Of a stretch of DNA of 32,000 nucleotides, positions 16,230-20,054 are shown one piece after another; positions within the stretch are counted from its first letter, which is position 1; each line of letters opens with the position of its first letter. The notes beneath the pieces were generated by a model, which ran no database searches, had not been told where the DNA came from, and worked only from the letters and a program-made list of their open reading frames with translations. Position numbers and translations under genes: made by a program. Source of the stretch: Candidatus Baldrarchaeum yapensis (lineage in GTDB: Archaea > Asgardarchaeota > Baldrarchaeia > Baldrarchaeales > Baldrarchaeaceae); assembly GCA_016840465.1 (NCBI GenBank), contig JAEOSH010000011.1:18118-50117 (forward strand). The letters run 5' to 3'.

Positions 16230-17462
16230 TCACTCATCCATCCCGCTCATGCGTTCTCGACTTTTCAGAACCTCTAATGTTCTCTCGGCTAACCTCGTAG
16301 CAAGCCCATAGAGCCTCTCCGTAAGGCTATAATTTATAATTACGTACCAGTACGAATCTCTTGCAACAAATCTCGCAACTTTCTCCAAACGCCTCCTGAC
16401 CTCCGGCGAATTGAACGTACCGTGATGCAACAGCAAGTTTCGACCTCTAATCTCGATCATAATGTCCAATGCACCATGATATATCGTATTTCTTATCTTT
16501 CTCGCCAAATCTATTAAGAGAAGATCTTCATCGGAGATCTTAAACCCCAAATCCTCAATCTGCTTCCTGCTTCCTTTCGCGAAATCTATAAGTTCTAAAA
16601 AGGTCGATGCCTCGGCGCTTTTAAGATCACCCTCGATCAGATACCTTATTTCCCGAAGACACACCTCCATGAGAGCACCTAAACTCTCTAAAAGCCCGAG
16701 CACGTCATAAAGAACTTCTTCCATACCCAGCCTCCCGAAATCTACCCCTTGTACCAAGTTCCTAACTTCACGTAACCTGCGCATTATTTGTATGGACCAC
16801 GGATTCACCCATGCTTTCAGATATGCTAGCAACCTTCTCCCAATAGTAACCAAAATATAACTTTCCCTTTCACCAACAAGCCGGTCACACCGCCTATACT
16901 TGGAAAGAAACTCCATCTCATCGGCCTTTAAAACCCCAAGATCTGCCAGAAACCGAACTACGTCCCCCCATGTTGAAAACTTACCGTTAAGCATGGCTAT
17001 GAGATAACACAGCATGTGAACGGTCTTCATAAGAAAATCAAAACCCCGATAACCTAGCGCATTCAACCTTCCCTCTAAAATGCGAAGATTTCTCGCGACA
17101 AACGACTTTATACGTGTTATCGCCTCCTTTCTGACAACTTGAAGTTCTACACCTAGATCATCATCCCTCAAAAGAATAACACGACCGGATATTATCACAT
17201 TCGTCAGAAAAGGATCTCCCCTCCTCAGATATTCGAGAAATTCCGGCTTCTCATATACCACAAGATCTAAGCGCGTATTACCCTGTTTCGAGATTCTCAA
17301 AAGCCCCTCCTCAACTGATAACTGACTCCCCCTCTCGCACACAACAAGCACATCTATATCGTTATACTCCTCGTCCCGCAAAAAACTCCCAAATAGGATT
17401 ACGAGAATTACGTCGTCCCTTGTCTTTAGAGCATCTAAGATCCCATTAATTACTTTCATCAT
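16230..17462 (-). CDS. Minimal nucleotidyltransferase (Pol-beta fold) fused to a C-terminal HEPN-like domain
   Basis: N-terminal LFGSFLR..YNDIDVLVV plus a downstream LDLVV acidic residue. The C-terminal RNTIYH (Rx4H) lies at 16476-16493. Start uncertain (17462, 17459 or up to 17531). Confidence 0.65.
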   Translation of the reverse strand: MMKVINGILDALKTRDDVILVILFGSFLRDEEYNDIDVLVVCERGSQLSVEEGLLRISKQGNTRLDLVVYEKPEFLEYLRRGDPFLTNVIISGRVILLRDDDLGVELQVVRKEAITRIKSFVARNLRILEGRLNALGYRGFDFLMKTVHMLCYLIAMLNGKFSTWGDVVRFLADLGVLKADEMEFLSKYRRCDRLVGERESYILVTIGRRLLAYLKAWVNPWSIQIMRRLREVRNLVQGVDFGRLGMEEVLYDVLGLLESLGALMEVCLREIRYLIEGDLKSAEASTFLELIDFAKGSRKQIEDLGFKISDEDLLLIDLARKIRNTIYHGALDIMIEIRGRNLLLHHGTFNSPEVRRRLEKVARFVARDSYWYVIINYSLTERLYGLATRLAERTLEVLKSRERMSGMDE

Positions 17463-17600: not shown

Positions 17601-17641
17601 CCTGGTCGGGCCGCCGGGATTCGAACCCGGGACCTGGCGGT

Positions 17642-17658
17642 ATCTGTCCGAGCAGGGG
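17642..17658 (-). other. tRNA intron 2 (17 nt, canonical 37/38)
   Basis: CCCCTGCTCGGACAGAT. After intron 1 is removed it forms a BHB: central helix CUGU/ACAG, bulges A36-G37-C and A-U-A38. Confidence 0.78.
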
Positions 17659-17660
17659 CT

Positions 17661-17707
17661 ATTGCTCCTTGGGACCCTCTCTCACACCACATCAAGGGTC
17701 CCAAGGT
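17661..17707 (-). other. tRNA intron 1 (47 nt, non-canonical 35/36)
   Basis: BHB made of upper helix GGGC/GCCC, bulge A-U-A, central helix GGCU/AGCA (one G.A mismatch), bulge G34-U35-A, and a perfect 12-bp lower helix CCTTGGGACCCT/AGGGTCCCAAGG. Confidence 0.75.
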
Positions 17708-17797
17708 ACAGCCGCCCGCTCTGGCCAGGCTGAGCTACGGCCCGGGAGGATTTTCTTTTCTCTTCAGTTCCATCCTTATCTTTACATTAGTGTTGGG

Positions 17798-19466: not shown

Positions 19467-20027
19467 CTATCCCTTGTGGGTTCTCTTAAGCATCTCGTTG
19501 ATGAGCATGTTGAAGGCTTCGGAAACGTTGTATCCTGTCTTTGCGCTTGTTTCCACGTATTTAGAGAGGTTTAACTCTTTTACTGCGTTTTCTCCTGCGC
19601 TTTCCGGAACCTTTCTCAGATCATTCATGTCGATCTTATTTCCGACCAGTATTATTGGTATGTTCTTGTCATAAGCCTCCTCTCTCAGCATATCTATCCA
19701 TTCAGGTATCTTTTCGAGGGTGTCGGGGTTTGTAACGTCGAAAACTGCGAGTGCGCCATGTGCTCCCCTTATTATGTTGCGAATGTGCCTAATAAATAGG
19801 TTCTTGAATTTTTCCTGTCCGCCGAGATCCCATATTTGCAGTTTTATCAGTTTGTCTCCCATGGGTATCGGTTTTGTTAAAATGTCAACTCCAATTGTTG
19901 GCTTGTATTCTACGTCGAAGTATCCGTGGGCGTACCTTCTGCAGAGAGAAGTCTTGCCGACCCCCCATTCTCCCACTATCACAACTTTTCTTAGGATTTT
20001 TGTCTTCTTTTCTTCACCTAAGGACAT
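19467..20027 (-). CDS. Rab-like small GTPase (Ras superfamily)
   Basis: GEWGVGKT, YKPTIGVD, KLQIWDLGGQ, GNKID, ETSAKTG. Likely start ATG 20027 (the ORF extends to 20045). Confidence 0.93.
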   Translation of the reverse strand: MSLGEEKKTKILRKVVIVGEWGVGKTSLCRRYAHGYFDVEYKPTIGVDILTKPIPMGDKLIKLQIWDLGGQEKFKNLFIRHIRNIIRGAHGALAVFDVTNPDTLEKIPEWIDMLREEAYDKNIPIILVGNKIDMNDLRKVPESAGENAVKELNLSKYVETSAKTGYNVSEAFNMLINEMLKRTHKG

Positions 20028-20054
20028 CTTGACTCCCCGAATCATATTTTTTAA

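Follow-up and report, generated by a model that had tools for sequence, protein, structure and literature searches.

The minus strand of the window (the whole stretch of DNA analysed, 32,000 nucleotides) carries a tRNA-Tyr gene whose anticodon loop is interrupted by 64 surplus bases. The question raised by this locus is how these bases are removed from the precursor: in one piece, which would leave a pyrimidine at position 37 of the mature tRNA, or as two nested introns, which would leave an exon of only two nucleotides, A36-G37, between them. The features of the locus are listed in Table 1.

Table 1. Features of the interrupted tRNA-Tyr locus, with related tRNA calls elsewhere in the genome (positions refer to the window except where a contig is given).
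Feature	Positions	Strand	Remarks and basis
tRNA-Tyr(GUA) gene	17603..17744	(-)	142 nt including encoded CCA
5' exon, C1 to U35: acceptor stem, D arm, G26, GGCGG, C32-U35	17708..17744	(-)	Direct reading; cut from BHB1 geometry
Proposed intron 1, 47 nt, position 35/36: A, 13-bp hairpin, AGCAAU	17661..17707	(-)	BHB enumeration
13-bp hairpin, helix B of the proposed BHB1; loop UGAUG...UGA, K-turn/K-loop-like	17667..17706	(-)	Listed pairs
Proposed 2-nt micro-exon A36-G37	17659..17660	(-)	Between BHB1 3' cut and BHB2 5' cut
Conserved intron element UAGCC..GCUCGGACA	17645..17661	(-)	Alignment; would supply the AG exon, BHB1 helix A and most of intron 2
Proposed intron 2, 17 nt, canonical 37/38	17642..17658	(-)	BHB2, in the intermediate only
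3' exon, A38 to A76	17603..17641	(-)	Direct reading and Rfam alignment
'tRNA-Pyl(cta)' and 'tRNA-Stop(tta)' calls	G000 C51:23841-24008, C67:85757-85877, C66:15035-15141, C67:32444-32531		ARAGORN; probably artefacts

The interrupted tRNA-Tyr gene

A real tRNA-Tyr gene had been proposed here in a preliminary description of this DNA, and the present results bear this out. When the region alone was searched with Rfam, RF00005 matched 17606-17744(-) with 49.6 bits (E 4.9e-10) and a 67-nt insertion in the anticodon loop. By direct reading, the gene has C1-G72, A73, an encoded CCA, normal D and T arms, and anticodon stem strands GGCGG/CCGCC, with CUGUA directly after the stem. The cloverleaf, the GUA anticodon, C1-G72 and A73 are those of an archaeal/eukaryotic-type tRNA-Tyr. 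The same 142 nt are present in six other assemblies of the species (seven in total), in which the flanks vary at a few sites by SNPs. The gene, including the C that follows A36, is therefore not an assembly error.

The spacing from G31 to C39 is 71 nt instead of the expected 7, leaving 64 surplus bases that sit between U35/A36 and A38. With introns allowed, ARAGORN reads the gene as Tyr(gta) i(38,64), that is, with one 64-nt intron, which is the call that had been anticipated from scanners assuming a single intron. The gene was missed by ARAGORN without introns, by a window-wide Rfam search at the gathering threshold, and by a whole-genome RF00005 search. It is the sole Tyr gene detected by ARAGORN with introns in this 96%-complete genome of 100 contigs, and no second Tyr candidate was found there either by ARAGORN with introns allowed or by a DNA search.

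Splicing routes and the base at position 37

Possible excisions were enumerated with a strict BHB rule (bulges of 3 nt on either side of a 4-bp central helix, each bulge being cut after its second base), which also rebuilds ten other interrupted tRNAs of this genome correctly. Only two loops, CUGUAGA and CUGUACA, can be reached by strict routes of up to three steps (<=3), and CUGUAGA is always reached via a cut at 35/36. The two-step route is the only strict-BHB route that gives a purine (G) at position 37, and every excision in one piece leaves a pyrimidine at this position (CUGUACA or CUGUAUA).

The first site of this route, BHB1, consists of a central helix GGCU/AGCA, bulges GUA and AUA, a 4-bp helix A (GGGC/GCCC), and the intron hairpin as helix B, with cuts after U35 and after 17661. 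On the strand opposite the 5' cut, the hairpin, central helix, bulge and helix A are contiguous. The site was found where the preliminary description had placed it. Only three of the four central pairs are formed, with G30 opposite A, and the outer hairpin is 13 bp long (12 Watson-Crick pairs and one G-U). The second site, BHB2, has a complete central helix (CUGU/ACAG, 4/4), bulges AGC and AUA, a 5-bp helix A, and a 2-bp helix B (CC/GG). With these dimensions, both sites have the geometry of archaeal BHB introns. The earlier boundaries of both introns, of the AG between them and of A38 (17641) were all reproduced.

The AGC bulge and the CC/GG helix of BHB2 occur only in the 95-nt intermediate and are absent from the enumeration of the primary transcript. 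The 3' site of intron 2 (the AUA bulge, cut before A38, beside CUGU/ACAG) is already present in the primary transcript. The order of splicing, which had been described as apparently obligatory, is thus predicted to be so for the 5' site of intron 2, which needs intron 1 to be gone, but not for its 3' site. With this exception, the predicted precursor behaves as a nested multi-intron pre-tRNA, in which the second BHB appears after removal of the first intron.

From this geometry, we infer a route in which the 64 surplus bases would be removed by two successive EndA cleavages, each followed by ligation. In the first step, the 5' strand of the anticodon stem (G26-U33) would pair with the intron instead of its usual partner, forming a strict BHB with the 13-bp hairpin as its outer helix, and cuts after U35 and U17661 would release 47 nt. 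Ligation would join U35 to A17660, and a free 2-nt piece would never exist. In the second step, the anticodon stem would form and CUGU would pair with ACAG, giving an ordinary 17-nt canonical BHB intron whose removal would leave the loop CUGUAGA. The product of these two steps is called by ARAGORN as a 78-nt tRNA-Tyr with the loop CTGTAGA. The removal of two nested introns in this order, with A36-G37 as a micro-exon, is the best explanation of the locus and is probably correct.

Both BHBs are within the range of other introns in the same genome. Its canonical introns are 14-18 nt long with a helix B of 2-3 bp, matching the proposed intron 2 in size and shape. Several of its accepted introns form three of four central pairs, and that of tRNA-Thr(GGU) has a G-A mismatch at the central position symmetric to the one in BHB1. 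Two further genes, tRNA-Met(CAU) (G000 C51:23421-23542) and tRNA-Ser(GCU) (G000 C56:88281-88405), contain two introns each, with a middle exon of 7-8 nt. No copies of intron 1 were found elsewhere in the genome, giving no sign of intron transposition. The genome encodes two EndA paralogues of 193 and 195 aa, located at G000 C56:16106-16687 and C53:3852-4439, each with both EndA domains, and one of them is closest to the catalytic subunits of Aeropyrum, Sulfolobus and Pyrobaculum, which belong to crenarchaeal heterotetramers. The heterotetrameric type of EndA is reported to cleave non-canonical introns (PMC5829648), from which we infer a broad specificity that would enable the host enzyme to cut non-canonical sites.

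ARAGORN mislabels tRNA-Met(CAU) as Gly(gcc) and tRNA-Ser(GCU) as Ser(gga), and its 'tRNA-Pyl(cta)' and 'tRNA-Stop(tta)' calls (Table 1) are likely spurious, owing to introns that are non-canonical or multiple.

The base at position 37 distinguishes the possible products. A purine at this position is near-universal in tRNAs. Every sensibly resolved loop among the other tRNAs of this genome has a purine there, mostly G. In each of 36 other tRNA-Tyr sequences from the phylum (31 fetched distinct sequences and five from the sister genus), CUGUA is followed by G, and each of the 31 fetched ones reads CUGUAG and then enters an intron. When 400 genomes were scanned for CUGUA followed by a pyrimidine, this gene was the sole tRNA-Tyr match; the other three matches were one tRNA-Asn intron and two non-tRNA sequences.

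The first alternative is a single 64-nt intron at 37/38, in which case the cell would use a tRNA-Tyr with C37 and the loop CUGUACA. We consider this unlikely, although several features speak for it. The 4/4 CUGU/ACAG helix, the bulge cut before A38, and the 5-bp anticodon stem are already in place in the primary transcript, the 64 nt are homologous to the one canonical intron of the relatives (see below), and this is how ARAGORN reads the gene. In addition, helix B is absent (0 bp) from about one third of those tRNA-Tyr introns of the phylum that are correctly placed, so relaxed 5' sites are tolerated in many relatives; the enzyme evidently accepts such sites and might cut two bases after CUGU and produce C37. 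The preliminary description had argued against a single intron from its anomalous C37 and from the lack of a proper 5' bulge. The former holds, but the latter does not, since a strict BHB can be drawn with the bulge ACC, CUGU/ACAG (4/4), a 5-bp helix A, and a helix B (UUGGG/CUCGG) that includes three G-U pairs.

This single-intron BHB, however, melts the 13-bp hairpin and is about 14 kcal/mol worse than the folds that keep it. Once the hairpin is formed, A36 is the sole base between it and CUGU/ACAG, which leaves the canonical 5' site with one unpaired base instead of three. BHB1 shifts the central helix two bases upstream and thereby places a 3-nt bulge before the same hairpin. Removal in one piece would require either a cut inside two G-C pairs of the hairpin or the less stable fold, would give a pyrimidine 37 with no parallel in about 75 tRNA-Tyr genes of the phylum or in the other tRNAs of this genome, against the near-universal purine, and would leave the presence of a well-formed alternative route unexplained.

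The coincidence represented by this alternative route was estimated by randomization. When the linker (19 nt, from the hairpin to ACAG) was shuffled, a comparable two-step route to CUGUA-purine appeared in 3 of 4000 cases. When the conserved intron element was kept and the linker was randomized (3-9 nt), the route appeared in 25 of 700 cases (~4%), and with the linker fixed at 5 nt in 224 of 1024. The null that keeps the element is the fairer one, because the element is inherited. Part of the BHB1 complementarity is likewise inherited and not selected for splicing, because the AG and intron 2 lie in an element that is intronic in the relatives. The coincidence is real but moderate, and the unique pyrimidine 37 in the sole detected tRNA-Tyr gene is the stronger argument for the two-step route.

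Folding energies are only a rough guide here, since the nearest-neighbour model misses the cloverleaf even for the mature tRNA; on this scale, the BHB1 fold and a cloverleaf-type fold are isoenergetic (-68.1 vs -68.5 kcal/mol at 37 C). When the acceptor, D and T arms are enforced, GGGC/GCCC (helix A of BHB1) forms with a probability of 0.8-0.9 at 37 C; at 60-80 C the value is ~0.2-0.4, comparable to that of the anticodon stem in this range. Nearest-neighbour folding prefers a register-shifted variant and assigns the exact central pairs of BHB1 a probability of 0.004. The unconstrained minimum-energy fold (-81.3 kcal/mol) contains a different helix, a 13-bp pairing of intron with exon, and is 13 kcal/mol more stable.

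It is accordingly conceivable, if quite improbable, that both routes operate or that another structure, such as this intron-exon helix, is cleaved to give a mixture or another product. Three folds lie within a few kcal/mol of each other once the tRNA scaffold is enforced, and the intron-exon helix is conserved with covariation; it has no BHB-like geometry, however, and no other excision yields a 7-nt loop with GUA. Least probable of all is a defective or minor gene whose working counterpart lies in the unassembled part of the genome: the incomplete assembly and the failure of the tRNA search to find even the known gene mean that another interrupted Tyr gene could hide, but all arms, identity elements and the CCA are intact here, the gene is identical in the seven assemblies although their flanks carry SNPs, and both searches for another Tyr candidate were negative.

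Origin of the intron and its pairing with the tRNA

Besides this genome, the class contains four others, all from one sister genus. In that genus, the tRNA-Tyr genes (L031-L034, L199) are interrupted at 30/31 and, after a contiguous GCUGUAG exon, again at 37/38 by an intron of ~54 nt; a further intron lies in the variable region of four of the five, giving two or three introns per gene. For the 30/31 intron of these genes, the best strict BHB would place each cut one base away from the position required for a correct tRNA; in the register that does yield the correct tRNA, three of four central pairs form and a helix of 2 bp intrudes into the D stem.

The 64 surplus bases can be aligned to the one canonical intron that the relatives have. 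In an alignment of this genome with the five sister-genus sequences, G033 and G008, the shared parts are the hairpin, the linker, YAGCC..GCUC-NN-ACA, [A/G]CAG and the A-N-A38 bulge. The same hairpin/YAGCC/[A/G]CAG/A-N-A38 layout is found in the canonical 37/38 tRNA-Tyr introns of the phylum (L298-L327, L012, L014; L031-L034, L199). Those genes keep G37 beside A36, whereas this gene has a C there and its hairpin begins one base after U35. The conserved intronic motif YAGCC contributes the AG proposed as an exon, and the proposed intron 2 is wholly made of the element.

The alignment suggests that this lineage lost the G after A36 and that the replacing C, which pairs with G17667, lengthened the hairpin. 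The hairpin would then start right after A36, with one unpaired base left at the canonical 5' site and exactly three for BHB1. An ancestral single intron may well have been split in this manner after the loss of G37, the AG of the conserved element becoming a 2-nt exon that needs the first splice. On the same grounds, the two introns are likely not independent insertions.

The six same-species copies are identical, and the next relatives, in the sister family, lack BHB1. No relatives between the species and the order level were found. A metagenome scan with the T arm and acceptor stem returned mostly bacterial tRNA-Pro; the useful matches were L199 and two unrelated archaeal tRNA-Tyr. A search with the neighbouring MBL-fold gene returned same-species contigs with the identical tRNA, and one relative of 65% identity whose contig of 1 kb lacks the tRNA. 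Chance matches dominated a scan of the genome collection for the intron-element pattern, and its one archaeal match lies in a coding region. The locus shows no synteny with the sister genus.

The conserved element (17645-17661) can pair with 17711-17723, which corresponds to about tRNA positions 22-34 and includes the 3' strand of the D stem, G26, the 5' strand of the anticodon stem, and C32-G34. The duplex, interrupted by one bulge, is 11-13 bp long in this genome, the sister genus, G008 and G033; outside this genome, it is found at L031-L034, L199, L014:1414-1515 and L298:492-567. The predicted duplex energies are -20 to -25 kcal/mol, compared with -10 to -14 kcal/mol for shuffles, and the matching is lineage-specific. 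A compensatory change is found at position 27, which is G-C in the sister genus and C-G in G008. This helix between the element and the tRNA is the one that forms the predicted unconstrained minimum-energy fold of the pre-tRNA.

In its sequence layout, the element resembles an H/ACA-type guide aimed at U35. Counted from the partner base of G34, an ACA follows at 14 nt in this genome, the sister genus and G008, and at 11 nt in G033. In the first three lineages, this agrees with the distance of about 14 nt from the target U to the ACA behind the lower stem of such guides, which also have a K-turn in the upper stem. The ACA is not conserved across the phylum. Pus7/TruD is present in all five genomes tested, and no guide is therefore needed for pseudouridine 35. 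On these two grounds, an intron-borne H/ACA-like guide for this modification is a side idea only; no Rfam match was found.

The loop of the intron hairpin (17680-17693) reads UGAUGU..GUGAG. Many tRNA-Tyr introns of the phylum (L300-L327) have a stem enclosing UGA(U/N)GA ... (R)UGA, which is K-turn/K-loop-like (a putative L7Ae site).

Relation to known systems and neighbouring genes

Nested and multiple introns were reportedly described in pre-tRNAs of Thermoproteales in 2007, and the processing of a multiple-intron-containing pre-tRNA is said to have been reported in 2009. The preliminary description pointed to the multi-intron tRNAs of Thermoproteales; the organism studied here, which is uncultured, appears to be an Asgard archaeon and not a member of that order. 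Under the two-intron model, the systems are alike in having several BHB introns per gene, one BHB that forms only after removal of the other intron, and a heterotetrameric EndA with a ligase. They differ in that the middle exon proposed here comprises 2 nt (A36-G37) within the anticodon loop, and in that the introns apparently derive from one split ancestral intron instead of from separate insertions. Ordered nested tRNA introns are already known; the proposed 2-nt exon and its origin inside a conserved intron are the new aspects. We know of no published case in which a 2-nt exon is joined, and to our knowledge no tRNA exon as short as this has been proposed before.

If the two-step route is correct, archaeal EndA and ligase can build an anticodon loop from a 2-nt exon, and the last base of the anticodon and the adjacent purine would exist only after an obligatory first splice. 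Introns would then evolve by fission with exonisation and not by insertion alone, and annotation with a single intron would give the wrong mature sequence (C37) for an essential tRNA. The locus is also a clean test case for the choice of EndA between competing pre-tRNA folds. Under the two-intron model, the mature loop should read CUGUAGA, and two fragments of 47 nt and 17 nt should be released where a single intron would give one of 64 nt.

In October 2026, a census described tRNA genes of Asgard archaea as heavily interrupted (bioRxiv 10.64898/2026.10.13.758758). As at this locus, the census reports multiple intervening sequences per gene and BHB sites, and genes missed by standard annotators. 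It probably covers the same phylum and gives counts and positions, and the part of its text that was searched mentions neither tRNA-Tyr nor nested introns.

The gene just 3' of the tRNA (16230-17462, minus strand) encodes a nucleotidyltransferase-type protein, previously described as an MNT-HEPN fusion, for which no homologue outside the species was found among 5.8 billion clusters at E<=1e-10. The gene at 19467-20045 (minus strand) encodes a small GTPase of the Arf/Ras family, as judged from the Pfam families of the identical gene on same-species contigs, which fits an Asgard origin.
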